DNA from: Patescibacteria group bacterium
GTDB taxonomy: Bacteria > Patescibacteriota > Minisyncoccia > Phycocordibacterales > UBA918
DNA length: 64,000 bases
Assembly (NCBI GenBank): GCA_019745315.1
Contig: JAIETH010000001.1
Span: forward strand, 13,049-77,048
Direction: 5' to 3'
The translations under genes were made by a program, and so were the position numbers. A model generated the notes under the pieces. It saw only the letters and a list, made by a program, of their open reading frames with translations. It was not told where the DNA came from and did no database searches. Below, piece by piece: positions 17,171 through 64,000 of the stretch (the stretch's first letter is position 1; each line of letters starts with the position of its first letter).

Positions 17171-17299
17171 TTATATGAGCGTCAGAAGCACAGCGGCGGC
17201 GAATACGCCCGCTGTCACATACACCTGCTTCTTGCTGGGACTGGTGGTCAGCATGTACATGCCGACTACTGATCCAACCAAAAGAACGACGATGAGCAT
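17171..17299 (-). CDS. small two-helix membrane protein (43 aa)
   Basis: MLIVVLLVGSVVGMYMLTTSPSKKQVYVTAGVFAAAVLLTLI. Only the hydrophobic C-terminal part of the 100-aa ORF looks protein-like. Confidence 0.25.
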   Translation of the reverse strand: MLIVVLLVGSVVGMYMLTTSPSKKQVYVTAGVFAAAVLLTLI

Positions 17300-17411
17300 T
17301 TTGCTCCTCCCATGGGTTGATGTCTGTATTATACGGTAGTACGTATAATAGGTATTGTCAATGGTTTGGTATATTAAAAAACTACCACGAAAGGGTAGCG
17401 TATCTCTGCGA

Positions 17412-50545: not shown

Positions 50546-51070
50546 ATGATGAAATATCTCCTCATTGTGTTTTTTGGTCTTATGGCAGTCGGAGCAGCTG
50601 GCTATGGAATTTATATCGCAGCTACACAAGACCTGACTACTGAAGAGCCTCCTCTATCAGAGCCTATTACCGTCTTTCCTGTTCCGGCACCCGATACCGT
50701 ACAAGGCGGTTTTATGTTAGTTACAACACGAGATGAAGATAAGGTGCGGGTTGCTGATGTGCGTAAAAATCCTCTTGAGGTACAGATAGATCCTGACACA
50801 GGGAAGCCAATTTATACTCTTGTGTCTTCGCGGTGGGTAGATGGTAGGGGGGAAGGGTATGGACTGGCATTTGATGAGGGCTTTGGACTCTTTGTGGTAA
50901 CGGTGCATGAAGACTCATCTGGTACACAGCAGATACTTGCTGAACGTGAATTGCTTCGACGACTTGAAGTTTCCACTAAAGATTTTTGTCGATTACAATT
51001 TTATCTAACTGTCGTAGAGGCAGACGGATCATGGAGTGAGAGCACGAAACCTTCGCTATGCAATTTGTAA
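50546..51070 (+). CDS. membrane-anchored hypothetical protein (paralog of 49961-50512)
   Basis: N-terminal TM helix. C-terminal …DFCRLQFYLTVV… block. Confidence 0.4.
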   Translation: MMKYLLIVFFGLMAVGAAGYGIYIAATQDLTTEEPPLSEPITVFPVPAPDTVQGGFMLVTTRDEDKVRVADVRKNPLEVQIDPDTGKPIYTLVSSRWVDGRGEGYGLAFDEGFGLFVVTVHEDSSGTQQILAERELLRRLEVSTKDFCRLQFYLTVVEADGSWSESTKPSLCNL

Positions 51071-51939
51071 AACCTCTTAAAAAGATAGCCCAGATTGGTA
51101 TCTATGTCGGCGTACTTTTCTGTGTGCCACTATTGATGTTGGCTGCTGAGCGTCTTGTGCCCTGTGAGGGGAATGCATGTCGGGCATGTGATGTACGAAC
51201 GCTCTTAAAGAAGCTGATCGATTTCATGATCATGCTTGGCGGGTTTATCGCAACTATCCTTCTTATGTTTGCAGGGTTTACCATGGTCACCGCTGCAGGA
51301 AATATGGGGAAGATTGAGGAGGCAAAAAGTACCTTTAAAGCAGTCATTATCGGTATGTTTATCATACTTACGGGCTACTTAATTGTAGATACCTTCATGA
51401 AAACATTTGTAACGGGAAGTGTTTTTAATGGAGCTCCTTGGGATAACATAACCTGCGTACCAAACCCTTTAATTGAACGAACTCCTCCTGCTGCCATTGG
51501 AGGAGGTGGAACTGTGGTTGGAGGAGGTTCGACTGTTGGAGCTACTCCTGGGGATGTGGCTGCTTTGCAGCAAGCAGGCGTCACTGTTCAGTCGGGTGTC
51601 AATATGAGTCAGGTGAGTGGAAGTAGAATAACTCAAGCTGTTGAGATGGCGAGCGCATGTAGTATCGCAAATGGGGGAACTGCAACATCTAATGCGTGCG
51701 GTGTTCAAATTAGCAGTGGGTATAGAGCTGGCAACGGTCAGTCAAATCACGGAAATGGTACTGCGGTGGATATTTCTGGACGTAACGAAACATTTAATAG
51801 GTGGATGAATAGCCAAACAGCAGCACCATCTGCCTTCGGAGGATATAGGACAATTAATACAGGGCAGGGAGCATGTACCTGGCATCCTAACGAGGGTGGG
51901 GGCGGATATCACTGGCATTGCTCAGATACAGGAAGGTAG
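51058..51939 (+). CDS. VirB2/TrbC-like pilin domain fused to a peptidase M15-like (D-Ala-D-Ala/L-Ala-D-Glu peptidase) domain
   Basis: N-terminal block ACDVRTLLKKLIDFMIMLGGFIA...two TM helices. The C-terminus has SNHGNGTAVDISG and GGGYHWHC (the H-x6-D ... H zinc triad of M15). Confidence 0.5.
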   Translation: MQFVKPLKKIAQIGIYVGVLFCVPLLMLAAERLVPCEGNACRACDVRTLLKKLIDFMIMLGGFIATILLMFAGFTMVTAAGNMGKIEEAKSTFKAVIIGMFIILTGYLIVDTFMKTFVTGSVFNGAPWDNITCVPNPLIERTPPAAIGGGGTVVGGGSTVGATPGDVAALQQAGVTVQSGVNMSQVSGSRITQAVEMASACSIANGGTATSNACGVQISSGYRAGNGQSNHGNGTAVDISGRNETFNRWMNSQTAAPSAFGGYRTINTGQGACTWHPNEGGGGYHWHCSDTGR

Positions 51940-52002
51940 TTCGCGGGTTTTGATTGACTAAGCACACCCTTTCACATACCATTCCTTTTGAGGAGATATT
52001 TC

Positions 52003-52076
52003 GGGCGATTAGTTTAGTGGTAGAACATAGGTCTCCAAAACCTACGGTGGGGGTTCGATTCCCTCATCGCCCGCCA
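52003..52076 (+). tRNA. tRNA-Trp (anticodon CCA), CCA-3' encoded
   Basis: GGGCGAT...TAGGT-CTCCAAA-ACCTA...GGGGGTTCGATTCCCTC-ATCGCCC-G-CCA. Confidence 0.9.
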
Positions 52077-52181
52077 AGTCGTGCTAGCACGAGACGCTAG
52101 GAATAAAACTTATAATTCAAATTTAAGTGACAAGTTTTATTTAAAATGAAATTATAAAATATTAACTTTAATAGACTATTT

Positions 52182-52676
52182 ATGAATATAATTAATTTCC
52201 TAGATTTTACAGACCCGCTCGTAATAATGTTTACGGTAGATTTGTTTATTGCACTGGTTATCGGTTTTATAATTGGCGCAGAAAGAGAATCGCGAGGTAA
52301 AGACGCTGGAATCAGTACACATACATTTGTAATTGTTGGCGCGATGTTGTTTACGTTTCTTTCAATGGTTGTTGATCCAGCCTCTAAATCTCGGATTGCT
52401 GCTCAAATTGTTACTGGTATTGGTTTCTTGGGAGCGGGTATTATTCTCAAAGATGGAGCACAAGTTAGAAATTTAACTACTGCTGCTAGTATTTGGTTTG
52501 CCGGAGCAATCGGAATGGCTATTGGTTTTGATTATCATGAAATTGCTATTATTGCTGCGATAGCATCAGTTTGTATTCCTCGCATCCCTCATATCAGTAG
52601 CAAAAAAACGAGGCAAGGCAGTAAAAAAAATACTAACGAGGAAGAAAAAGACGCAATGCAATTTAGTGACGATTAA
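52182..52676 (+). CDS. mgtC: MgtC/SapB-family membrane protein
   Basis: LVIGFIIGAERESRGKDAGISTHTFVIVGAMLF is the MgtC signature region. Confidence 0.75.
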   Translation: MNIINFLDFTDPLVIMFTVDLFIALVIGFIIGAERESRGKDAGISTHTFVIVGAMLFTFLSMVVDPASKSRIAAQIVTGIGFLGAGIILKDGAQVRNLTTAASIWFAGAIGMAIGFDYHEIAIIAAIASVCIPRIPHISSKKTRQGSKKNTNEEEKDAMQFSDD

Positions 52677-52763
52677 TAGTATTGCATGAGCGCCAATTGG
52701 CGAATATTTGTAATTAATTAGAATAGCCAAAATAACATTAGATCAACTAAGAAAAAGCCGGAT

Positions 52764-53444
52764 ATGAAATCTATTATTACTAACCCATGGTTTGAGCGAT
52801 TAGTACTTGCTATCATCGTGGCCAATGCTATTACTCTTGGACTTGAAACCTATCCCGCCATTATGTTGGCGTACGGTAGCACTTTAATGAAGCTAGATTT
52901 GGTTTTTGTCGGGTTCTTTGTAATTGAGCTTTCGTTGCGTCTTTCAGTTTTAGGTCGCACGTTTTGGCAAGACGGATGGAACTGGTTTGATGCGACAGTG
53001 GTTGGGTTAACGGTTCTTCCATTTTTAGGAGTGAGCGGGATTGGTAACGTATCGGCTTTTCGAGCAGTCCGGCTTTTACGTGTTCTGAGCATTATTCCAT
53101 CTTTTAGACGGGTACTCGCGGGTATCGGCCGAGCACTTTCAGGAAGCTTTGCAGTAATGGCAGTATTAGCTGTAATTCTTTATGTATATGCAGTTGTGTC
53201 GGTAAAACTTTTTCGTGATGTAAGTCCTGAAAAATTTGCCGATCTAGGAACGTCGTTTTTTACCTACTTTCAAATTATGACCCTCGATGCTTGGAGCGAC
53301 ATCGTACTTCCTATTATGGCTGTGTACTGGTGGGCGGGAATGTTTTTTGTAAGTTTTATTGTAACAGCTGTATTTATCTTACTGAGTATCCTCATCGGTG
53401 TAGCTAGTAACGCAATGAATGAAAATGACACTGAGAAAAAGTAA
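52764..53444 (+). CDS. voltage-gated ion channel, BacNaV-like (single 6TM repeat)
   Basis: S4 with Arg every third residue (FRAVRLLRVLSIIPSFRRV). Pore loop FTYFQIMTLDAWSDIV, compared with TLESWS(M) in NaChBac/NavAb. Confidence 0.7.
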   Translation: MKSIITNPWFERLVLAIIVANAITLGLETYPAIMLAYGSTLMKLDLVFVGFFVIELSLRLSVLGRTFWQDGWNWFDATVVGLTVLPFLGVSGIGNVSAFRAVRLLRVLSIIPSFRRVLAGIGRALSGSFAVMAVLAVILYVYAVVSVKLFRDVSPEKFADLGTSFFTYFQIMTLDAWSDIVLPIMAVYWWAGMFFVSFIVTAVFILLSILIGVASNAMNENDTEKK

Positions 53445-53537
53445 TTATTTATTGAACGTATTTAAAGTTTGTATGTTTGATGCAAACTAACTTTTTTATT
53501 ATTTAAAGTAAGTTGAGAATTAAAACTAGAAATAATC

Positions 53538-53668
53538 TACCTTTTCTGTTTAAAAGTTCCATCTTTGAGCAAAAACTTAATACACCTCCTAATATCTATA
53601 TCTTCGACTTCAAAGTTAACGCCCTGCCCAAGCAAGAATGCATTTAATCTTTTACGCCCTACACGTAC
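53538..53668 (-). pseudogene. 3'-terminal remnant of a second serine recombinase gene
   Basis: Minus-strand translation ...AFLLGQGVNFEVEDIDIRRCIKFLLKDGTFKQKR* aligns with the C-terminus of the intact recombinase (…SVLGQELNFEIGDIDIKPYIKFLLKDGTIEEKR…). The rest of the gene is absent. Confidence 0.55.
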
Positions 53669-53689
53669 AAAATTGTATATCCAAATCTA

Positions 53690-54025
53690 TTAATAATTTA
53701 TCGCTTTTCGTTTTTTAGGTTCGGGTAACTCATCAAACGTAATTTGTATAAGTTTACTTAACCAAACATGATCTTCAATCTTTTCACTATCAATTTGAAT
53801 TGAAGGCTTTGCCCCAGGACAGGCAATGCCTTCAATATAATCGTTACCTAGATATTTTTGTCCTCCGACTGTCCTTTTTATAAACAATGTATCGCTACAA
53901 ATAAGACCTACTACTTTTCCTTCTTTATACAATGCATATTCGCCAAACATTTTCTTTACAGTGATAGCTCTTAGGTCAACCAGTTGATCTAAAATGTATT
54001 CAACTGTGCTGGGGCCAGTTGCCAT
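53690..54025 (-). CDS. TfoX N-terminal-domain-like protein
   Basis: LRAITVKKMFGEYALYKEGKVVGLICSDTLFIK matches the TfoX_N pattern (MFGG.glY...la.v.dd.LylK). Confidence 0.5.
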   Translation of the reverse strand: MATGPSTVEYILDQLVDLRAITVKKMFGEYALYKEGKVVGLICSDTLFIKRTVGGQKYLGNDYIEGIACPGAKPSIQIDSEKIEDHVWLSKLIQITFDELPEPKKRKAINY

Positions 54026-54031
54026 GTTTTT

Positions 54032-54445
54032 TTAAAATAAACCCAATGCAAAACTAATTACTCCACCCATAAAACCCACAGTTGCAACCGCAGCAATAAT
54101 GTCTGCAATAATTGGTTTAAAGTTATTGAAAAGATGAGATGTGGCGTACCAGTATGTACTCGTCATAATAGAAATCATGCCTCCGATAAATCCTCCAATT
54201 AAAACACCTTCCGCTAGGGTATTTGTTTCTGTCCACTGTGTGAATAGGATGGTGAGAAGTAACGAATATGCGACACAGGAAATGAAAAGCCAGATTAAAC
54301 TCGATTCAGCGTCACTTTTCTTAAAACCTTGAGCAGAGGTCATGTTATTTGCCATGAACTTGCCGAGTGCGAATTCAAATACAAACCACCCGATAATGAA
54401 ATAGCCAACTGCACCCAGGGCTGTTGCGGTAATTATTTCTAGCAT
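54032..54445 (-). CDS. four-helix membrane protein
   Basis: Hydrophobic 137-aa ORF. Confidence 0.4.
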   Translation of the reverse strand: MLEIITATALGAVGYFIIGWFVFEFALGKFMANNMTSAQGFKKSDAESSLIWLFISCVAYSLLLTILFTQWTETNTLAEGVLIGGFIGGMISIMTSTYWYATSHLFNNFKPIIADIIAAVATVGFMGGVISFALGLF

Positions 54446-54486
54446 ATACGAATTATTATATACTTAATTTAATGGTCTTATCTTGT

Positions 54487-55809
54487 TTAATGCAATGATA
54501 TCTGTTTATTTTGCAATAGTATTTCACTTTTAAAACACGACATAATCTCTCGCTTCTCTTCAATCGTCCCGTCTTTAAGTAAAAATTTTATATACGGCTT
54601 AATATCTATATCTCCAATCTCAAAGTTAAGCTCCTGACCGAGCACAGACGCTTCAAATTTCTTATACCTCGTTACTTCAGCCGCGATCTGTTTTTTAACC
54701 GTTAAGTCATGTATGGCTATCGTATCGACTAGACTTTGCAGTTGCTTAATGAGTTCTGTCTCTGAAACATAACCACACGGACAATGTTTATCTATTGCTC
54801 TAGTGCAACCGTAGTAGACATGAACGTTCATACCACCACCTTTCAGCTTTTTGTATTTCTCACTAGCACTAATACCAGATCCGCATAGACCACATTTCAT
54901 AATGCGAGTGAAGGCAAATTCATGGTCTGCTCGTGTCTTTAGCTCATTTCCCTTAACTTGAGCTTGTACCAGATCAAAAAGTTCTTTGGTGATAAGTGGT
55001 GCATGTTTACCCTGATACCAATTGCCACTGTTTTTAGGATATTCAAAGACTCCGTAGTAGAAGTGGTTATCAAGGATTTTGTAGATGTTACCGAGGCTCA
55101 AATGCTTCTTGCTCGGCAACGCTCTGAAATTCAGCTCGAATTTAAGCCAGTTGTATACTTTCCTGCCACTCCACTTTTCATACGCTACTTTTTCAAATAC
55201 CTGTTTAATCACCTGTCCTCTCTCAGGATCAATGTATGTCTCACACTTCCTATCCATGCGTTTTTCTTTTAGATAACCAGTTGGTGCAGGTGCCGGCCAT
55301 AAACCCATTTCAACTCTGGTCTTTAGTCCACGCTTCACATTAATACTTTTGTTGTCGTTTTCTAGCTTGGCTTGAGAACACAGAATCATCAAGAGAAACT
55401 TCTCACTCGGTGTGTTCGTAAATGTTTGTCCGTATGTGCGTATTTCACGGAGTAGATGTTGATCCATGAGATCAACGAGTGAACCGAGGTCACCTGCATT
55501 TCGACTCAATCGGTCTGGATGCCAGACAATAATGCCGTTGAAGCGTTCTCGTCTAATGTCCTCAAGTATTTCTTTAAAAACTGGTCGTTGCCCTGAGTCC
55601 TTTGCAGAATGTGACTCACGCCTAATCTCTACAATCTCCAACCCTTCACGTTCTGCAATTTCACACATCTCCTTAACTTGAGAGTCGATGGAAAGAGCTT
55701 GTTTCTCATCAGACTCAGTACTTTTGCGTGCGTATAGTAGGTACTTAACGGGCACTTTTGGTACATCAGTCTTTACTCCAAAGTTGTTCATTACTTGCGT
55801 TTCCATCAT
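54487..55809 (-). CDS. large serine recombinase (resolvase catalytic domain + recombinase domain + zinc ribbon + coiled coil)
   Basis: YARKSTESDEKQALSIDSQ catalytic Ser region. GIIVWHPDRLSRN. Recombinase-domain zinc ribbon CGLCGS...C..CGY. 440 aa. Confidence 0.85.
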   Translation of the reverse strand: MMETQVMNNFGVKTDVPKVPVKYLLYARKSTESDEKQALSIDSQVKEMCEIAEREGLEIVEIRRESHSAKDSGQRPVFKEILEDIRRERFNGIIVWHPDRLSRNAGDLGSLVDLMDQHLLREIRTYGQTFTNTPSEKFLLMILCSQAKLENDNKSINVKRGLKTRVEMGLWPAPAPTGYLKEKRMDRKCETYIDPERGQVIKQVFEKVAYEKWSGRKVYNWLKFELNFRALPSKKHLSLGNIYKILDNHFYYGVFEYPKNSGNWYQGKHAPLITKELFDLVQAQVKGNELKTRADHEFAFTRIMKCGLCGSGISASEKYKKLKGGGMNVHVYYGCTRAIDKHCPCGYVSETELIKQLQSLVDTIAIHDLTVKKQIAAEVTRYKKFEASVLGQELNFEIGDIDIKPYIKFLLKDGTIEEKREIMSCFKSEILLQNKQISLH

Positions 55810-56002
55810 TAATTAATGACAGACCTGCACGAGATGCATAGCTATGCAGACTAAGAAATACGTCACATACTCGCTGATTGTCCTTAGCAAAAGTGCAAAC
55901 ATGCGATAGAGTGAAATCGGTAGCAAAATCTGCTATTATTGTTCTCGAACAATTGAATATTAGACCTAACCCCTTAAGTCTCTTGAGGATATGGTCGCAA
56001 AT

Positions 56003-56145
56003 CCGTCCAAAGTAAAAAGCTCCTAATCAGGGCTACTTTGGACGGTCATATCGGGAAACTGGTATGGGCATATCTCACGGGGTATGTCGGCTTGGTTAGG
56101 AGCTTTTTGCTATCTGATCAAATTATTAAAAACCGTCCAAATAAT
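56003..56145. promoter_or_regulatory. nested inverted repeats/operator-like motif cluster in the divergent intergenic region next to the recombinase gene
   Basis: IR1 ccgtccaaagta (56003-56014) / tactttggacgg (56035-56046). IR2 aaaagctcctaa (56015-56026) / ttaggagctttt (56096-56107). A third ccgtccaaa copy lies at 56133-56141, directly before the ATG at 56146. Confidence 0.4.
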
Positions 56146-56646
56146 ATGAATACAATCAAAAAATGTCCTAAGTGCCAAAAAGAGGTCGATGCAAAAGCAA
56201 CTAAGTGTCCGTACTGCCAGTCAGACACAAGAAGCTGGGTAAGACAGCATCCAATCGGAGTGTTCCTGCTCTTTCTCATCTTTTTACCAATCGTTATCAG
56301 TCAGATCAATGCTGAACCAACACCAGTGCAGACTCCAGCTCAACAAATTCATGAAGTGAAGTTTCAAAGTGCAAGAATTCTTGCAAAGTCACACATAGAG
56401 AAAATTCCCCTTACTTCACCATCGACAGCAAAATACAATCCACCGACTACAAAAGTTGACCCAACAGATCCGAATCTTTTTGAAGTTTCGTCATACATAG
56501 ACAGTCAAAACGGATTTGGTGCAATGGTTCGTACATATTGGTCAATGAAGCTTAAGTTCAAAGGTGAAGATACTCAAGAATCAGTCGAAACAGATGCAAA
56601 CTGGGAAATCGTTGAGTTCACTTTTGACGGCGAAAAGATTAAGTAG
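56146..56646 (+). CDS. zinc-ribbon membrane protein
   Basis: CPKCQKEVDAKATKCPYCQ zinc ribbon followed by a TM helix. Start trimmed to MNTIKK at 56146. Confidence 0.4.
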   Translation: MNTIKKCPKCQKEVDAKATKCPYCQSDTRSWVRQHPIGVFLLFLIFLPIVISQINAEPTPVQTPAQQIHEVKFQSARILAKSHIEKIPLTSPSTAKYNPPTTKVDPTDPNLFEVSSYIDSQNGFGAMVRTYWSMKLKFKGEDTQESVETDANWEIVEFTFDGEKIK

Positions 56647-57109
56647 TTTTAGAAGCGTCTTTCTGCGGAATCCATCTATCCAGCATCTCTCTCGCTCTCT
56701 TTACTGCATTAGCAGCTTTTTCTGCACTGTCACGGTTTAGCTTTTCTTCCATCTTTCTCTTGTTCTGATAATGGGTCTCAATTCGTTTTTGCTCAAATTG
56801 ATCATTTGAGGCATCTCGATGTCTGAATGGCATTTTGTATGCTTCGTGCCTATGACTTAACCAGTACTTTGTGTATGCAGCATCTTTATTTTTGATGCCA
56901 GTAAGGACATTGCTTTCTGCCACATCATTTACCAAACCCACACCAAATCCCATAGCCTTATTCACCTCATTGAAGCTGTCTTCGCTTTCATTCATCCACC
57001 GATAAAACGTCTGACGAGAAATGCCAAACTTTTCACAAACCACTTGAATAATAGGAGTACGTTCTAGCTCTTCTAAAATCTTACTCCATAACACTTTAGT
57101 TTTCTTCAT
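56639..57109 (-). CDS. HTH protein resembling a phage terminase small subunit
   Basis: KILEELERTPIIQVVCEKFGISRQTFYRWMNE is a terminase-small/transposase-type HTH. A basic coiled-coil C-terminus follows. Confidence 0.4.
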   Translation of the reverse strand: MKKTKVLWSKILEELERTPIIQVVCEKFGISRQTFYRWMNESEDSFNEVNKAMGFGVGLVNDVAESNVLTGIKNKDAAYTKYWLSHRHEAYKMPFRHRDASNDQFEQKRIETHYQNKRKMEEKLNRDSAEKAANAVKRAREMLDRWIPQKDASKTT

Positions 57110-58532
57110 GTGACTGGACCTTTACTTTGAGACCAGTCAGCTTCTCATAGCGATTAATAATAAGATCGCAGAAGGCTGGTTCAAGTTCACAACCGTACAC
57201 TCTTCGACCAAGAGCGTTACCTGCGATTAAGGTACTTCCAGAGCCAAGGAAACTATCGAGAATGATGTCGTTCATCTTAGTACAGCGTTTGATCGCTTTC
57301 TCATGAAGACATGGTGGTTTAGACGTAGCGTGTTTATAGTCTTTGGCGGCTAAACGCTTGGCGGTCCAGATATCTATAAAGTCGTCAACCTCGCTAAGTA
57401 AGTTGTTGCCTGTGCTAAGTTCTTTATTCATCACTTCGTTAAGGTTGGTAATCGGTTCTGCCAAATGTGGTTTGCCACGAGTTCCGTATACCACAGGCTC
57501 GTATACCTTATTGAACGCCACGCCAGGTACGGGGTTCTGGTTATTTTTCAACCATAAACACACTCGCTTATTGCTGATTCCGAGTTGCCTGTATATCTCC
57601 TGTACAACCCCGATAAATACTTGATCGCACCAGTAGAAAACATGAGTATCTTTATTTGATACCGCTAAGGCTGACTCCATACTATCTTTGAGAAACTTCT
57701 GGTATTCAGCAAACGTTCGTTTATCTTTTACATTTCCTCCATAGTCTTGCTTTCCTCCAATACCGCCGTTGTAGTCGATGTTGATGTTATAGACGGGGTC
57801 AGAGTAAATCATTGAGACTTTCTCATTGCCAAGGAGTCGCTTTAGAGTTTCTGGCTTAGTAGAGTCGCCGCAAATAACCCTATGCTTGCCGAGAGTAATA
57901 AGGTCACCAAGTTTCGTCTTTGGCTCTACAATCTTCTTTAATTCTTTTTCTTCGTCAAAACTATCGTCGGCAACCTCTGTCTCTTTGTCGTAGATGTCTG
58001 ACAACTCAATATCGTCAAAACCACCAAACTCAAGTGCACCCATTTCAAATCCTTTGAGTAGATCGAAATCCCAGTCGCCACCAAGCTTGTTAGAAGCGAT
58101 GAGATACTCGTCTGATTCTTCTTTAGTTAGCTTACGGTTCGGAACTCTTACATCAATAATTTCATCACCACGATTAAGAAGCTGAAGGGCCTTGATTCGT
58201 TGATGGCCTGCAAGGATAGAGCCATTAGCATCTATGGCAGGTATTTCTACTAAGTTGTATTTCTTCAGGCTTCGCTTCAAGTCCGACATTTGTTTGTCGG
58301 TAATAGAGCGAGGGTTAACGTCTTGAGGGATAAGATCATTAACTCGCCTTTGGGCTGTTGCCCATATAAGTTTTTTCATACCTACACTACGTTTACTATT
58401 TTTAAGTTTGGCTGCGCCCAGTTTCAGGGGGCAATTGTTATCGCAGTCTTTACGTGTGGTATGAAATGTATCTATAACAAGTTTATCAATTTGATAAACT
58501 ATGTCAATGGGTTTATACTGGGGATATGTCAA
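57096..58532 (-). CDS. ParB-like nuclease domain fused to a beta-class N4/N6 DNA methyltransferase
   Basis: ParB/Srx motif EIPAIDANGSILAGHQRIKAL. MTase motif IV SDPVYNI (DPPY-like). Motif I DSFLGSGST lies near the C-terminus (beta-class order). Confidence 0.75.
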   Translation of the reverse strand: MTYPQYKPIDIVYQIDKLVIDTFHTTRKDCDNNCPLKLGAAKLKNSKRSVGMKKLIWATAQRRVNDLIPQDVNPRSITDKQMSDLKRSLKKYNLVEIPAIDANGSILAGHQRIKALQLLNRGDEIIDVRVPNRKLTKEESDEYLIASNKLGGDWDFDLLKGFEMGALEFGGFDDIELSDIYDKETEVADDSFDEEKELKKIVEPKTKLGDLITLGKHRVICGDSTKPETLKRLLGNEKVSMIYSDPVYNINIDYNGGIGGKQDYGGNVKDKRTFAEYQKFLKDSMESALAVSNKDTHVFYWCDQVFIGVVQEIYRQLGISNKRVCLWLKNNQNPVPGVAFNKVYEPVVYGTRGKPHLAEPITNLNEVMNKELSTGNNLLSEVDDFIDIWTAKRLAAKDYKHATSKPPCLHEKAIKRCTKMNDIILDSFLGSGSTLIAGNALGRRVYGCELEPAFCDLIINRYEKLTGLKVKVQSHEEN

Positions 58533-58783
58533 AGAAACTATCTTTTAAGCAACTCGACATACAAATTGGTCAGAAAATTAAAGGGTGTCGTCAGAAAGCA
58601 AATTACTCGCAAACCAATCTTGCAGAGTTGTTGAAATATGAATCACCAACAGCAATTTCATTAATTGAAAGTGGTGAAAGAAGCCTAAAAATTCACGATC
58701 TTATTATTCTCTGTCAACTCTTTGATAAAGATTATAATCACTTTATTGGTCGTCCGTCTGAACATAAAAATAGGATAATTTAG
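58526..58783 (+). CDS. XRE-family helix-turn-helix regulator
   Basis: QIGQKIKGCRQKANYSQTNLAELLKYESPTAISLIESGER is a Cro/C1-type HTH. Confidence 0.6.
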   Translation: MSKKLSFKQLDIQIGQKIKGCRQKANYSQTNLAELLKYESPTAISLIESGERSLKIHDLIILCQLFDKDYNHFIGRPSEHKNRII

Positions 58784-58844
58784 TAGGACTACTCACATAC
58801 CAGATAAGTTCGAGATACTAAGCTAAAAATGGTAAAATCGAGTT

Positions 58845-61800
58845 GTGATCGCCAATGTTAACTGGAACAACTTTAGGGTAAAATTCGACAACCAAAACGA
58901 GGTCGCTTTTGAACGTCTCTGTTATCTCTTGTTTTGCAAAGAATTTAACAAAAACCTCGGAATATTCAGATTCAAAAACCATGCTGGAATTGAGACCAAT
59001 CCCGTTGAACATGAAGGTAAGATTATTGGTTGGCAAGCAAAATTTTATAGCACAGCACTATCGCAACATACTGCCGATTTCAAAGAATCTATCGATAAAA
59101 CTAAGGAAAGACATCCTGAAGTAAATAAGATTATCTTCTACACGAATCAGGAGTTTGGTCAGGATAAAATGAAGACGGATCCGCGATATAAGAAAGATCT
59201 AGAGACTCATGCAAAATCGAATGGAGTAGAAATTGAATGGAGGACAGGAAGCTACTTTGAGTCACTGTTTGTATCTGAAGACAACTTCAGCATTGCACAG
59301 CATTTCTTTGACCTTAAGCCTGGCATCATTGATTCTATTATTGAACTGCAAAAGTACACCGACCAAGTATTGCAACCGATCCGGTCGCAGATTGCTTTCG
59401 GAGAGAATTCTGTCAAACTTGATAGGTCTTCAATCGTCGGAGGAATCAGAGATACAGCCAAGAACTTTCCGATTGTCGTTCTAAGTGGTGGTGCAGGGGT
59501 TGGTAAAACAGCAGTCGTAAAGGATCTATACGAAGCAGTTAAAGAATCGACACCGTACCTTGTCTTTAAAGCCACGCAATTCAAGAGTGCAACACATATA
59601 AATCAGCTTTTCAAGGATTATGGAGAGATAACAGCAACAGAATTTATTGCTGAACATAAAGATATCAATGAAAAATATGTGGTCTTTGATTCATCTGAGA
59701 GACTTTCAGAGATTGAGGATCAGGATGTATTTAGAATGTTTCTATCCGAACTGGTCACAAATGGGTGGACTGTCATTTTTACAGTACGGCATAGTTACCT
59801 TGATGATCTACGATTTCAGTTAAAGGAATTTTATGGAACCAATTTCGCATCTCTTAATATTCCATATCTCTCAACAGAAGAAGTAGAAAAAATTTCCAAA
59901 GAATTTAAATTTGAAATCCCAAAAAATGCCAGACTGGCAAATCTGCTATTAACGCCACTTTATCTGAGCGAATATTTGCAGGATTATAGCGAGAGTAGAG
60001 CAAACATTAGCTATAATGATTTCCGTGAAACTATCTGGAAGAAACAGATTCAGAACTCAAGTTATCAATCAAATAACTTGCATAGGCGCAGAGAGGAATG
60101 TTTTCTGAAGGTTGCGAAGCAGCGAGCAAATGAAGGTGGTTTCTTTGTAAAAACTGATGAATCAGATCACGAGGCACTTCAAAAGTTAGGGGCAAGCGAA
60201 ATCATAAAATTTGATTCAAAAGCTGGAGGCTATTTCATAACCCATGACGTGTACGAGGAATGGGCGTTGGATATACTCATTGAGAGAGCCTTCAATAGTG
60301 CATCAGACTACCAGAGTTTTTATGCTGAAATTGGTAACTCGCTTCCAATTCGACGTGCTTTTAGGAATTGGTTATCTGATAAGCTCTTTGCTAATGATGA
60401 CAAGGCAAAGAAGCTGATTGAATTTACTGTCCAAGATTCCAGTTTTGAAAATCACTGGAAAGATGAAGTTTTAGTCTCGGTACTTCTTTCCGATTACTCA
60501 GAAGTGTTTTTTGAACTCTTTGAAAAAGAACTACTTACAGATCCTGAGCGAGTAGTTTCAGTCGTAAGCGCTACTGAAGGAATTAGAGTATTTGATATTA
60601 ATTACCAAATTGAGAAGAAACTTATACATAGAATTCTCTTCCTTCTACGCATTGCTTGTAAGACAGTTGATGAGGACTTTTTGAGTCGTCTGGGTTTGAG
60701 TCGTGCAAACGCATTATCGCTAGAAACGATTTTTACTACTCCAAAGGGCAGTGGGTGGTCTTCAACAATTGCTTTCATCAATAAGCATAAAGATAAGTTC
60801 AAGCTCATGTACATGCACGTCATCCTTCCTGTTCTGGACGATTGGAATCGAAGTCATCAGCAAGGTGAGACTACAAAGAATGCAAGCCAGATTGCTCTTT
60901 TTTACTACAATACTCTAACAGCACAAAAAGATTTTTACTTTGGTTCAAGAGATAGTACTAAAGAACCACTAATTAGAACCATTTTAAATGGATCTGGCGA
61001 GATAAAAGAAGAGTTAAGTAAGATTATCAAAGCTGTTGTATTAACAAAAGACACTACACACCGAAGCAGGTATTATGAGTTAGTAAATACAATACTCTCA
61101 TCGATCCTAGATAGTACAGTAGCGGCAAGGAATCTGCCGAAGGAAGTTATAAAGCTTGCGAATCTGTTTTGGTTTGATAATTCTCCTGAGGATGAGTACT
61201 CTCACTTAAACTATCGAAATGATCTTGAACAGTATTACGGTCTTACGTCGGGTCATCTCGATTATTATCCAGCCAGTGCTTATCAAACCCCAATAGGAAC
61301 ATTGCTCCAAACTGCTCCGCAAGAAACAGTAAATTTTATTCTTGCGTTCACAAATAAAGTAATTGAATATTTTTCTAAATCGGAATTAGGAAACGAAGCG
61401 GAGTACATTGACGTTATCATTGACGAAGTTGGAACAACCGTTAAACAATATATTGGTCACCGTATTTGGAACATATATCGTGGCACCCAGACGAATCCTC
61501 CTTTACTAGAGTCCATTCACATGGCTTTAGAAAGTTGGTTACTTTGGTTAGCAAAGACATATGATGTAGAATTGGTAGAAAACTGGTGTTTTTATTTAAT
61601 TAAACATTCCCGATCTACATCAATTACGGCAATAGTTGTAAGTGTGGTTCTTGCTGAACCAACAAAGCTTTTCAATGTTGCAAAGATTCTTTTAAAGAAT
61701 AAGGATTTCTTCTTCTTTGATCTCTCTCGACTGCAGTTAGATAGATCACATGCAAAGTTTTCCTACTCAATGGCTCATGATCCTGGAGGGATATTTAGAA

Positions 61801-63680
61801 ACGAACGATTGCAAACTTGTGAAGATAAGCATCGTGAACGCTACCTTGAAAATCAAGCTTTGAATTACCAATTATTTTCTGACGAAGGTGAAAAAGAAGA
61901 TTTGGCAAAAGGTAGGCAAGAGGCCGTATGGAAGATACTAGACGAACATTATGCAAAGTTACCAAACAAGAAGAAAGAAACTAACAGCGATAAAACGTGG
62001 AGACTTACCTTGGCCAGAATGGATCGTCGAAAGATGAAAATCTCTACAGAGGAGAAAGACAAACAAATTTTTATAAGCTTTAATCCTGAAATTGATCCTG
62101 AACTGCGACAGTACAGCGAAAATGCTCAAGCTAAGAGTTCAGAGGCATTGAAATATACGCCTTTACAATTATGGTCTCACAATAAGTTTGAGAAGAATGA
62201 GGATGCTAAAAAGTATCTTCAATATGAAGATGGTCACGATTTGACACTTTCTGAAACAAAGACAATTCTTGAAAAATTAACTATCGAGAAAGACGAAGGG
62301 AGCCAATTTAGGTTGTTCTATCATTCAGTTCCAGCTTACGTTTGTTCTGTACTTCTCAGAGATTATGCAGAAGAGCTAAGTCCAGAAGACGCAGAATTCT
62401 GTAAAGATATTGTGCTTGACTATGCTTCCATGCCTTTACGGGAAGGTTACAGCTATCAGATTGGAGATGGATTGGAAGCAGCAGTAAATATTCTTCCTCT
62501 TCTAATCAAAAAGTTCCCTAAGGACGCTGCAAAAATTAAAGAAGTGTTATTATTGATCCTCTTTGATTCTTATCCAATCGGTACGAGTCAGCGAGTTTCT
62601 GATTATGCAGTCGCATCCATTTTGCAATATTTATGGCCAGAAAGTCCTAATGATGCTAATGCCATACTGTATGGATATTTGTTACTTAAACCAAAATTTG
62701 ATCAGATAAGTGAATCTATCAGGGAAGAGAACCGAAAGAATCAGAAACGTGATTTTTCTAGAATTCCAGTGCTGAAACGATTCAAGAAAGAATGTAAAAC
62801 TGGAATTAAGAAAGTTGTTTCCAGTCAGCTTTCTTATGGAAATATACAAAATGCCGCTGAAATAGATCCTGACGTACTCGTGACCGCTTTTCTATTAGTA
62901 CCATTAAAAACTACCGACGCTGATCATAAGAAGTTTTTGCGAGACATAAGTCCGACTCTCATTGAGGCATTTAAGAATGAGGACAGAGAAGAACGCCTCG
63001 ACTATGTTCTTGAACACAGGTTCTTGGATAAATTTGCTCACTTCGTACTTTACTCACCCAAAGAAGAAATTGAGGCGTATGTAGAACCATTCATCGAGCT
63101 TATTGGCGACTTCAGACGAAGGAAGGATGTGGCTGATGTATTCGAAGCGTTTATTATTGCGGAAGATGCAATAAACCAGTACGAGGAATTCTGGATTGTG
63201 TGGCAAGTTTTCTATCCAAAGATAGTAGAACTCTGCTCAGATGAACACCACCTCAGGTATTCAGAGAATGTCGTCTATAAGTATCTCTTGGCTGTACAGT
63301 GGAATAAGGCTGCTAAAGAGTGGCATTCTCTGAAAGATAGAGAGCGGGCTTTCTTCAAGAAAGTCTCTGAGGAGATGGGTGGGAACGCACCTGTTTTATA
63401 TGCACTTGCAAAACTTCTAAACGATATTGGAAGTAACTTTGCCACTGACGGTATCGCTTGGATTAGCGGTTTACTACAAAAGAATTCAAATCTTTCTCAT
63501 AAAGAATTGGAAGTAAACACCGTTTACTATCTAGAAAATCTTGTACGAAGCTATATTCTCAAGAATCGTCAAAAGATTAAAACTGACCCACAGTTGAAAA
63601 AGCAGATCCTTGTCATTTTAGATTTTCTCCTAGAAAAAGCTTCGGTAACTGCCTACCTATTGAGAGAAGATATTTTATAA
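58845..63680 (+). CDS. 1611-aa STAND-type P-loop NTPase with N-terminal Mrr-like PD-(D/E)xK nuclease motif and long C-terminal helical repeat region (Avs-like candidate anti-phage protein)
   Basis: N-terminus AFERLCYLLF...HAGIETNPVEHEGKIIGWQAKFY parallels Mrr_cat (FE.L...LL...DGGIDI...VQCKRY). Walker A VVLSGGAGVGKTAV. Walker B-like YVVFDSSERL. About 1200 aa of Leu/Glu/Lys-rich predicted helical repeats. Confidence 0.7.
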   Translation: MIANVNWNNFRVKFDNQNEVAFERLCYLLFCKEFNKNLGIFRFKNHAGIETNPVEHEGKIIGWQAKFYSTALSQHTADFKESIDKTKERHPEVNKIIFYTNQEFGQDKMKTDPRYKKDLETHAKSNGVEIEWRTGSYFESLFVSEDNFSIAQHFFDLKPGIIDSIIELQKYTDQVLQPIRSQIAFGENSVKLDRSSIVGGIRDTAKNFPIVVLSGGAGVGKTAVVKDLYEAVKESTPYLVFKATQFKSATHINQLFKDYGEITATEFIAEHKDINEKYVVFDSSERLSEIEDQDVFRMFLSELVTNGWTVIFTVRHSYLDDLRFQLKEFYGTNFASLNIPYLSTEEVEKISKEFKFEIPKNARLANLLLTPLYLSEYLQDYSESRANISYNDFRETIWKKQIQNSSYQSNNLHRRREECFLKVAKQRANEGGFFVKTDESDHEALQKLGASEIIKFDSKAGGYFITHDVYEEWALDILIERAFNSASDYQSFYAEIGNSLPIRRAFRNWLSDKLFANDDKAKKLIEFTVQDSSFENHWKDEVLVSVLLSDYSEVFFELFEKELLTDPERVVSVVSATEGIRVFDINYQIEKKLIHRILFLLRIACKTVDEDFLSRLGLSRANALSLETIFTTPKGSGWSSTIAFINKHKDKFKLMYMHVILPVLDDWNRSHQQGETTKNASQIALFYYNTLTAQKDFYFGSRDSTKEPLIRTILNGSGEIKEELSKIIKAVVLTKDTTHRSRYYELVNTILSSILDSTVAARNLPKEVIKLANLFWFDNSPEDEYSHLNYRNDLEQYYGLTSGHLDYYPASAYQTPIGTLLQTAPQETVNFILAFTNKVIEYFSKSELGNEAEYIDVIIDEVGTTVKQYIGHRIWNIYRGTQTNPPLLESIHMALESWLLWLAKTYDVELVENWCFYLIKHSRSTSITAIVVSVVLAEPTKLFNVAKILLKNKDFFFFDLSRLQLDRSHAKFSYSMAHDPGGIFRNERLQTCEDKHRERYLENQALNYQLFSDEGEKEDLAKGRQEAVWKILDEHYAKLPNKKKETNSDKTWRLTLARMDRRKMKISTEEKDKQIFISFNPEIDPELRQYSENAQAKSSEALKYTPLQLWSHNKFEKNEDAKKYLQYEDGHDLTLSETKTILEKLTIEKDEGSQFRLFYHSVPAYVCSVLLRDYAEELSPEDAEFCKDIVLDYASMPLREGYSYQIGDGLEAAVNILPLLIKKFPKDAAKIKEVLLLILFDSYPIGTSQRVSDYAVASILQYLWPESPNDANAILYGYLLLKPKFDQISESIREENRKNQKRDFSRIPVLKRFKKECKTGIKKVVSSQLSYGNIQNAAEIDPDVLVTAFLLVPLKTTDADHKKFLRDISPTLIEAFKNEDREERLDYVLEHRFLDKFAHFVLYSPKEEIEAYVEPFIELIGDFRRRKDVADVFEAFIIAEDAINQYEEFWIVWQVFYPKIVELCSDEHHLRYSENVVYKYLLAVQWNKAAKEWHSLKDRERAFFKKVSEEMGGNAPVLYALAKLLNDIGSNFATDGIAWISGLLQKNSNLSHKELEVNTVYYLENLVRSYILKNRQKIKTDPQLKKQILVILDFLLEKASVTAYLLREDIL

Positions 63681-63696
63681 AGCTAGTAGAAAAATT

Positions 63697-64000
63697 ATGA
63701 ACTACGATGAACTTATAAAAAACTGGCATGCCAAAGCAATAAACGAGGATTTCTTCTCGGGCTTTGTTTTTGAATACTTGGCATTTATTGCGTTTCTAAG
63801 GAAGCGTCTTTTTCAGGATGCTCGTGATGATAGAAGAGCTATTCAGATGTTAAAGCGTGATGAGGAAGTGAGGGCTGAATATTTGCATTGCGTTAAAGCT
63901 GACGAACATCTTACTGATGCTTGGAATAACATCATCGCCGAATTGGTGAGGGCGCAACTCGGTAATGTCAGAGGTAATGGAAACATTGTCGATGAAATTG
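63697..64000 (+). CDS. hypothetical protein, 5' part only (runs off the window)
   Basis: ATG 17 nt after the STAND stop. MNYDELIKNWHAKAINEDFFSGFVFEYLAFIAFLRKRLFQDARDD... with no stop before 64000. Confidence 0.35.
   Translation, partial: MNYDELIKNWHAKAINEDFFSGFVFEYLAFIAFLRKRLFQDARDDRRAIQMLKRDEEVRAEYLHCVKADEHLTDAWNNIIAELVRAQLGNVRGNGNIVDEI

Follow-up and report, generated by a model that had tools for sequence, protein, structure and literature searches.

In this work we analysed a stretch of 64,000 nucleotides (nt) from a Patescibacteria group bacterium (contig JAIETH010000001.1; hereafter the window), whose forward strand carries at 58845-63680 a single open reading frame (ORF) of 1611 amino acids (AA). 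A first-pass annotation, made from the letters of the sequence, had placed one ORF there and likened its product to antiviral STAND proteins of the Avs type, in which a nuclease is followed by a P-loop NTPase core and by a long run of helical repeats that could act as a sensor. The ORF is present as claimed and this general reading holds, since Avs4 family models, the solved structure 8DGF and the predicted folds all agree on it. The 1611-AA protein is a full-length, intact member of the known Avs4 family and no new kind of system. The reference for comparison throughout is EcAvs4, the AVAST type 4 protein of Escherichia coli (PDB 8DGF; WP_000240574.1 on plasmid pETN48). The features of the gene and of its product are the following:

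58845..63680, + strand: avs4 gene, 1611 AA, GTG start, TAA stop at 63678-63680 (ORF list and Avs4 family models).
58845..59354, + strand: N-terminal Mrr-like PD-(D/E)xK nuclease effector, residues ~1-170 (49% identity to EcAvs4 residues 1-~190).
58992-58994 and 59034-59042, + strand: putative catalytic residues E50 and Q64-A-K66, respectively (alignment to EcAvs4).
59427..59894, + strand: STAND P-loop NTPase core, residues ~195-350 (invariant Walker residues, weak Pfam matches).
59487-59510 and 59676-59699, + strand: Walker A GGAGVGKT (215-222) and Walker B VVFDSSE (279-285), respectively.
60522..63677, + strand: C-terminal helical sensor, residues ~560-1611 (homologue of the part of EcAvs4 that binds the portal).

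The avs4 frame runs uninterrupted for 4836 nt, and the probability that a 1611-codon frame stays open by chance is ~1e-52 with the base composition of the ORF and ~1e-43 with that of the window. An in-frame TAA at 58833-58835 precedes the GTG at 58845, which is therefore the first possible start of the gene. The N-terminus that results, MIANVNWNNF, aligns residue for residue with the homologues and with E. coli Avs4, the N-termini of the homologues starting at residue 1-5. No clear Shine-Dalgarno sequence is visible at this GTG.

Two curated models identify the protein. The NCBIfam equivalog NF041815, 'AVAST type 4 anti-phage nuclease Avs4', matched with 2017 bits, for a cutoff of 1500 bits, over protein residues 6-1611 and model positions 1-1579 of 1579. 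The defence-system models of PADLOC, which the first-pass annotation had advised searching, returned the Avs4 model PDLC02169 with 1911 bits over model positions 3-1570 of 1570. When all PDB chains were searched, the sole match was 8DGF_A, 'ATP-binding protein Avs4' (1299 bits, residues 5-1611 on 4-1587), with an alignment that extends to the final residue of that chain. A tblastn search of plasmids gave 39 records, 35 of them full-length, and the matches listed are enterobacterial genes annotated avs4 (E. coli, Salmonella), at 41.5% identity and 100% query coverage. No model of another Avs type matched in NCBIfam, nor in PADLOC at E <= 1, where the only match besides Avs4 was a weak and unrelated one to typeIV_RecD. 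An identity as Avs1-3 was rejected, as the models of these proteins give no match. A helicase or translocase of the housekeeping type was rejected too, since the matches to RecD2, FtsY and the like are weak and do not go beyond the P-loop.

The alignments point in the same direction along the whole length of the protein. The window protein was aligned by MAFFT with EcAvs4 (translated from pETN48) and five diverse homologues, seven sequences in all, and a further alignment held 24 sequences. EcAvs4 and the window protein are 42.7% identical over 1560 aligned columns, and this identity is evenly spread across the domains: 49% in the nuclease domain, 40% in the NTPase core, 45% in the helical/winged-helix region that follows, and 39-47% in three sensor segments. 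The nuclease motifs are F22-E23-R24-L25 .. L28-L29, G48-I49-E50 and Q64-A65-K66. E50, Q64 and K66 correspond in the alignment to EcAvs4 E49, Q63 and K65, while K221 corresponds to K239 and D282/E285 to D296/E299. In the 2022 work of Gao and colleagues (Science), Q63 and K65 are reportedly the residues of EcAvs4 that were mutated to kill its nuclease. In the seven-sequence alignment, E50, Q64, K66, K221, T222, D282 and E285 are invariant; across the 24 sequences, E50, Q64, G215, G218, G220, K221, T222, D282 and E285 are invariant and K66 is found in at least 90%.

Structure prediction was performed on the two parts of the protein. The AlphaFold2 model of residues 1-400 (24 sequences; mean pLDDT 87.8, pTM 0.81) has a helix at 18-33, strands at 54-56 and 59-66, a helix at 72-89, a strand at 95-100, a helix at 114-125 and a strand at 129-133. 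Such an order of helices and strands agrees with a core of the restriction-endonuclease kind, after which the model has a Rossmann-like P-loop domain. Compared with the PDB by Foldseek, the model has as its top match 8dgf_A ('Avs4 bound to phage PhiV-1 portal'; E 5e-41, TM-score on the query, TMq, 0.77), and the next matches, at ~1e-08, are generic AAA+ proteins and SeAvs3 (8dgc_B), which cover the NTPase part only. The model of residues 412-1611 is almost wholly helical, with 65 helices and four beta-hairpins (mean pLDDT 79.2). It matches 8dgf_B/A with E 1.7e-69 and TMq 0.69, and unrelated alpha-solenoids, such as karyopherins, only appear from 4e-06. The three modules first recognized by motif thus survive closer inspection: the N-terminal Mrr-like PD-(D/E)xK motif has conserved residues and a predicted fold that matches 8dgf_A, the P-loop core (GGAGVGKT, then hhhhD) has both Walker motifs with key residues invariant in 24 sequences, and the long stretch predicted to be helical is modelled as such. 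Neither a lack of the PD-(D/E)xK fold, nor Walker motifs outside a STAND core, nor a fold of the housekeeping type was found.

EcAvs4 and the window protein have the same order of modules, nuclease, STAND NTPase and helical sensor; they are collinear from residue 5 to the C-terminus and have in common the E/Q-x-K residues, the Walker A lysine and the Walker B aspartate and glutamate. Both are encoded by a single gene that adjoins an integrase or recombinase gene on a mobile element, the EcAvs4 locus of pETN48 having an integrase gene and an AbiGi gene alongside. The two proteins differ by two insertions. EcAvs4 alone has 19 additional residues in the nuclease domain (EcAvs4 ~108-126), whereas the window protein alone has 23 additional residues at 567-589 (nt 60543-60611), at the start of the sensor, which may fold as a beta-hairpin in a part of the model that is of low confidence. 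In the alignment, this second insertion marks a clade: the majority of the closer homologues have it, some of them from outside the Candidate Phyla Radiation (CPR), and several phyla are represented, so that it is not specific to CPR. The hosts also differ, EcAvs4 coming from an enterobacterial plasmid and the window Avs4 from a metagenome-assembled genome (MAG) of Patescibacteria. Avs1-3, Avs5 and bNACHT proteins are built on the same general plan as the window protein, with an effector at the N-terminus, then a STAND NTPase, then a repeat sensor. Its NTPase part has SeAvs3 (8dgc_B) and EfAvs5 (9jap_A) as distant structural matches, and the structural similarity to Avs1-3 and other STAND proteins goes no further than the P-loop domain (TMq 0.34); the sensor is unrelated.

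The public record places the protein in a large and homogeneous family. A large protein database contains 1128 homologues at E <= 1e-10. In the best 120 of these 1128 matches, on which lengths and names were read, most proteins are 1575-1650 AA long, tightly grouped around 1611 AA. One entry is identical to the window protein (100%), NCBI MBX9906354.1, 'ATP-binding protein [Patescibacteria group bacterium]', encoded by a contig of 315,805 bp, and its organism name bears out the CPR-like background that had been guessed for this DNA. MES2930964.1, which is 78% identical, carries the name 'AVAST type 4 anti-phage nuclease Avs4 [Patescibacteria group bacterium]', and several homologues among the matches listed are named Avs4. 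Homologues that are 50-62% identical have, among the matches listed, names from Deltaproteobacteria, Legionella, Bradyrhizobium, Binatia and Atribacteria, and this diversity indicates that the Avs4 family is broadly spread and evidently mobile. A tblastn search of a phage collection gave no match, so there is no evidence of this Avs4 in sequenced phages. Among GTDB species representatives, the closest loci are in three Patescibacteria MAGs, two at 78% (one of them Ca. Saccharibacteria) and one, of Ca. Buchananbacteria, at 58%. The Patescibacteria homologues, namely MES2930964.1 in JAZKIP010000010.1, those of CAZYLF010000002.1 (Ca. Saccharibacteria) and MHIM01000039.1 (Ca. Buchananbacteria), and that of the Logan metagenome contig SRR25048690_67216, are 58-86% identical to the window protein, and those seen at full length have 1611-1612 AA. 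In the collection of papers searched, nothing was found on Avs or AVAST systems in Patescibacteria or CPR; CPR bacteria carry varied phage-defence systems, of which surveys exist (bioRxiv 10.1101/2025.03.10.642329).

The avs4 gene lies in a region whose GC content drops from ~0.44 before position 52000 to 0.37-0.41 from there to the end of the window. The neighbouring features are:

52003-52076, + strand: tRNA-Trp.
54487..55809, - strand: large serine recombinase (Pfam Resolvase, Recombinase, Zn_ribbon_recom; PHROG 95 integrase, 2.5e-60).
55963-56088, + strand: LOOT RNA (Rfam RF03000, 79.9 bits).
Between the LOOT RNA and the next gene: Zn-ribbon ORF.
56639..57109, - strand: helix-turn-helix (HTH) protein similar to the small terminase subunit of phages (Pfam HTH_28 7e-06, weak Sf6_terminase; PHROG 4102 5e-06).
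57096..58532, - strand: N6/N4 DNA methyltransferase with a ParB-like domain at its N-terminus (orphan methylase of the phage type).
58526..58783, + strand: XRE-family HTH regulator, directly upstream of avs4 (Pfam HTH_3 8e-09; PADLOC HTH_VI).
63697->64000, + strand: partial ORF, MNYDELIKNWHAKAINEDFFSGFVFEYLAFIAFLRK..., which begins 17 nt past the avs4 stop and leaves the window.

The tRNA-Trp gene is followed by genes for MgtC, an ion-transport protein, a TfoX_N protein and a DUF1761 protein, and then by the serine recombinase, which is likely to be the integrase of the island. A search for repeats that could be attachment (att) sites in 51900-64000 yielded only short two-copy matches of chance quality. 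The ParB-methylase, whose true start is probably an internal Met near 58379, matches Pfam N6_N4_Mtase (2e-28), PADLOC MTase_II (1e-54), the PHROG 498 DNA methyltransferase (1e-81) and the ParB-like phrog_620 (1e-21). It forms a divergent pair with the XRE gene (58380-58783; methylase on the - strand, XRE on the + strand). The XRE protein, which shows weak PADLOC matches to 'control proteins' of restriction-modification systems (7e-05), may serve as a regulator of the methylase, of Avs4 or of the two together. The partial ORF at 63697->64000 has no meaningful match in Pfam, PADLOC or PHROG, and could be a further cargo or defence gene. A serine recombinase, a phage-type methylase and a small-terminase-like HTH gene thus adjoin avs4, in line with the proposal that it lies in a recombinase-bearing island beside phage-like genes. 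Upstream of the tRNA gene, a 293-AA ORF (51058-51939, + strand) has an N-terminal domain similar to type IV secretion system (T4SS) pilins of the TrbC/VirB2 kind (Pfam T4SS_pilin 3e-07) and a C-terminal part whose S-x-H-x-x-G-x-A-x-D ... H-W-H motif, read by eye, recalls LAS-type zinc peptidases. A fusion of a pilin with a cell-wall hydrolase would be unusual.

The window was compared with other Avs4 loci of Patescibacteria (L002, L004 and L007 to L009). One of them, L007, is contig SRR25048690_67216, whose Avs4 is 86% identical to the window protein. Positions 54487-63680 of the window and 21-8530 of L007 form a collinear block that comprises the serine recombinase, the small-terminase-like HTH gene, the ParB-methylase, the XRE gene and avs4. 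Nucleotide identity is 79.7% over 57127-63680 and ends exactly at the avs4 stop codon, the recombinase is 73% identical in nucleotides to the one at the end of L007, and the terminase-like homologue of L007 has an equally faint Sf6_terminase match. The genes 3' of avs4 differ between the two loci, and the window has an extra insert of ~830 nt that holds the LOOT RNA and the Zn-ribbon ORF. Judged from these sequences, the block has the appearance of a single integrative element whose distal end carries variable cargo. In the other loci the neighbours of avs4 are different: an HinfI-type restriction-modification pair, a LexA-like protein and a serine recombinase in L008 and L009, with the island recombinase abutting a tRNA gene in L009; a methylase, a DUF262/HNH protein and a serine recombinase in L004; and Zn-ribbon, restriction-endonuclease-like and primase-like genes in L002. 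The XRE gene found upstream of avs4 in L007 is not in L002, L004 or L009, and the XRE regulator is part of the shared mobile block and no conserved partner of Avs4. Likewise, the partial ORF that follows avs4 in the window has no counterpart after avs4 in L002, L004, L007 or L009. Nucleotide homology between the window and L002 reaches from 19 nt 5' of the avs4 start to 2 nt 3' of its stop, and a tRNA situated 3.5 kb before the L002 avs4 shares 86% identity with the window tRNA-Trp. Because the neighbours vary among L002, L004, L007 and L009, and because homology with L002 covers little more than the ORF, Avs4 behaves as a cassette complete in itself, which has no constant partner gene and is housed in defence or mobile islands of variable content. 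This also applies to the E. coli plasmid, with its integrase and AbiGi neighbours.

The LOOT RNA is an observation of its own. Located between the serine recombinase and the Zn-ribbon ORF, within the insert that has no counterpart in L007, it scores 79.9 bits for a gathering score of 46.4 and has a fold of -52.9 kcal/mol (z = -7.1 versus shuffled sequence). A second copy (72.9 bits) lies at 17237-17357 on the + strand of L002, 2.4 kb downstream of an avs4 whose product is 78% identical and just 5' of a small ORF, while no copy was found in the further loci L003, L004, L007, L009 or L010. In the discovery paper, the sole match to the name of this RNA was an author surname. LOOT RNA may be linked to mobile elements in CPR.

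Taken together, these observations make it very probable, by analogy with EcAvs4, that the locus works as an anti-phage system of the Avs4 kind (AVAST type 4), made of a single gene and borne by a serine-recombinase mobile island in the genome of a member of Patescibacteria (CPR). Avs4 proteins are activated by phage portals and form tetramers that switch on the N-terminal nuclease (PMC11897194), and Avs1-4 bind their targets directly, recognizing the folds of terminase and portal (PMC13581612). By homology to EcAvs4, we infer portal binding, tetramerization, DNA cleavage and protection of the native host for the window protein as well. In this scheme, Avs4 would lie idle as long as no tailed phage makes its portal protein in the cell. 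Once one does, the helical sensor at the C-terminus would bind the portal directly, and the ATP-bound STAND NTPase domain would drive assembly of a tetramer. The tetramer would bring together the N-terminal Mrr-like PD-(D/E)xK nuclease domains, which would cut double-stranded DNA indiscriminately, so that the infection would be aborted and the cell lost. Portal binding leading to a tetramer and hence to nuclease activity is the likeliest mode of action, given that the three modules and the catalytic residues are conserved here and given the literature on the family.

Several observations weigh against this reading. In the Pfam scan of the whole protein, Mrr_cat (PF04471) gave no match at E <= 1, and every NTPase match (AAA_14, AAA_16, NACHT and nSTAND3, over residues 206-350) was below its gathering score. 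Of the profile searches that the first-pass annotation had proposed, the NACHT and AAA_16 part therefore came out as sub-threshold signals and the Mrr_cat part did not come out at all. The assignment of domains consequently leans on the family-specific models and on 8DGF, and 'Mrr-like' is to be taken as a label at the level of fold and motif, obtained through EcAvs4, and not as membership of the Pfam family. The sensor, at just 39-47% identity to EcAvs4 and with its 23-residue insertion, could have a target range different from that of EcAvs4. Finally, a promoter and terminator scan of 58300-64000 showed no excess over shuffled background (16 versus 15.1 and 5 versus 3.8, respectively).

The divergence of the sensor segments and the insertion at 567-589, with a predicted beta-hairpin that EcAvs4 does not have, would also suit an Avs4-family protein whose sensor has been retargeted, either to a trigger other than the portal or to the portals of a narrow set of CPR phages only, particularly as a 2026 survey of Avs proteins found the targets of STAND sensors to be widely varied (PMC13581612). 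We nevertheless consider such retargeting quite unlikely, because the alignment runs to the very end of EcAvs4 without large rearrangements, the predicted sensor fold matches 8DGF at E 1.7e-69, a model of equivalog level is passed, and the insertion is found in several phyla. It is highly improbable that the island carries a decaying or silent Avs4 remnant whose function has been lost: promoter and terminator counts no higher than chance and a GTG start with no clear Shine-Dalgarno sequence would agree with this, but the 4836-nt frame is unbroken, the catalytic and nucleotide-binding residues are all intact, and relatives that are 78-86% identical are nearly equal in length (1611-1612 AA). Lastly, the claim that the protein is a divergent and probably undescribed variant, which a reader guided by motifs could reach because generic Pfam models give weak AAA/NACHT P-loop signals and no nuclease domain, and which the bare NCBI label 'ATP-binding protein' of the identical entry would not contradict, does not hold, and a nuclease-STAND defence protein distinct from Avs1-4 is effectively refuted by curated Avs4 models matched at full length and above cutoff (2017 bits versus 1500), by ~42% identity from end to end with the solved EcAvs4, by close homologues that number over 1000 and have the same length (lengths being those of the best 120), by the identical sequence already present in NCBI and by the 78% identical Patescibacteria protein already named Avs4.

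In conclusion, with the locus read as a functional Avs4 system, the main value of this work is a correct annotation: MBX9906354.1 is at present labelled merely 'ATP-binding protein', Avs4 is its proper name, and the locus opens no question beyond the reach of EcAvs4. Patescibacteria are obligate episymbionts with tiny genomes, and Avs4 recurs on serine-recombinase islands in several of their lineages. From this recurrence one might suppose a CPR clade of Avs4 tuned to the portals of poorly known CPR phages, or shifted in specificity, for example via the clade-level 567-589 hairpin, an idea that we regard as unlikely. If it were true, CPR phages could be tied to their hosts through such proteins at the molecular level, and abortive-infection immunity would be at work in episymbionts. 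There remains a modest ecological point, that a 4.8-kb sensor coupled to a suicide nuclease is kept and exchanged on serine-recombinase islands of Patescibacteria with reduced genomes. The upkeep of Avs4 beside methylases and restriction-modification modules fits the varied defence repertoire of CPR bacteria (bioRxiv 10.1101/2025.03.10.642329).

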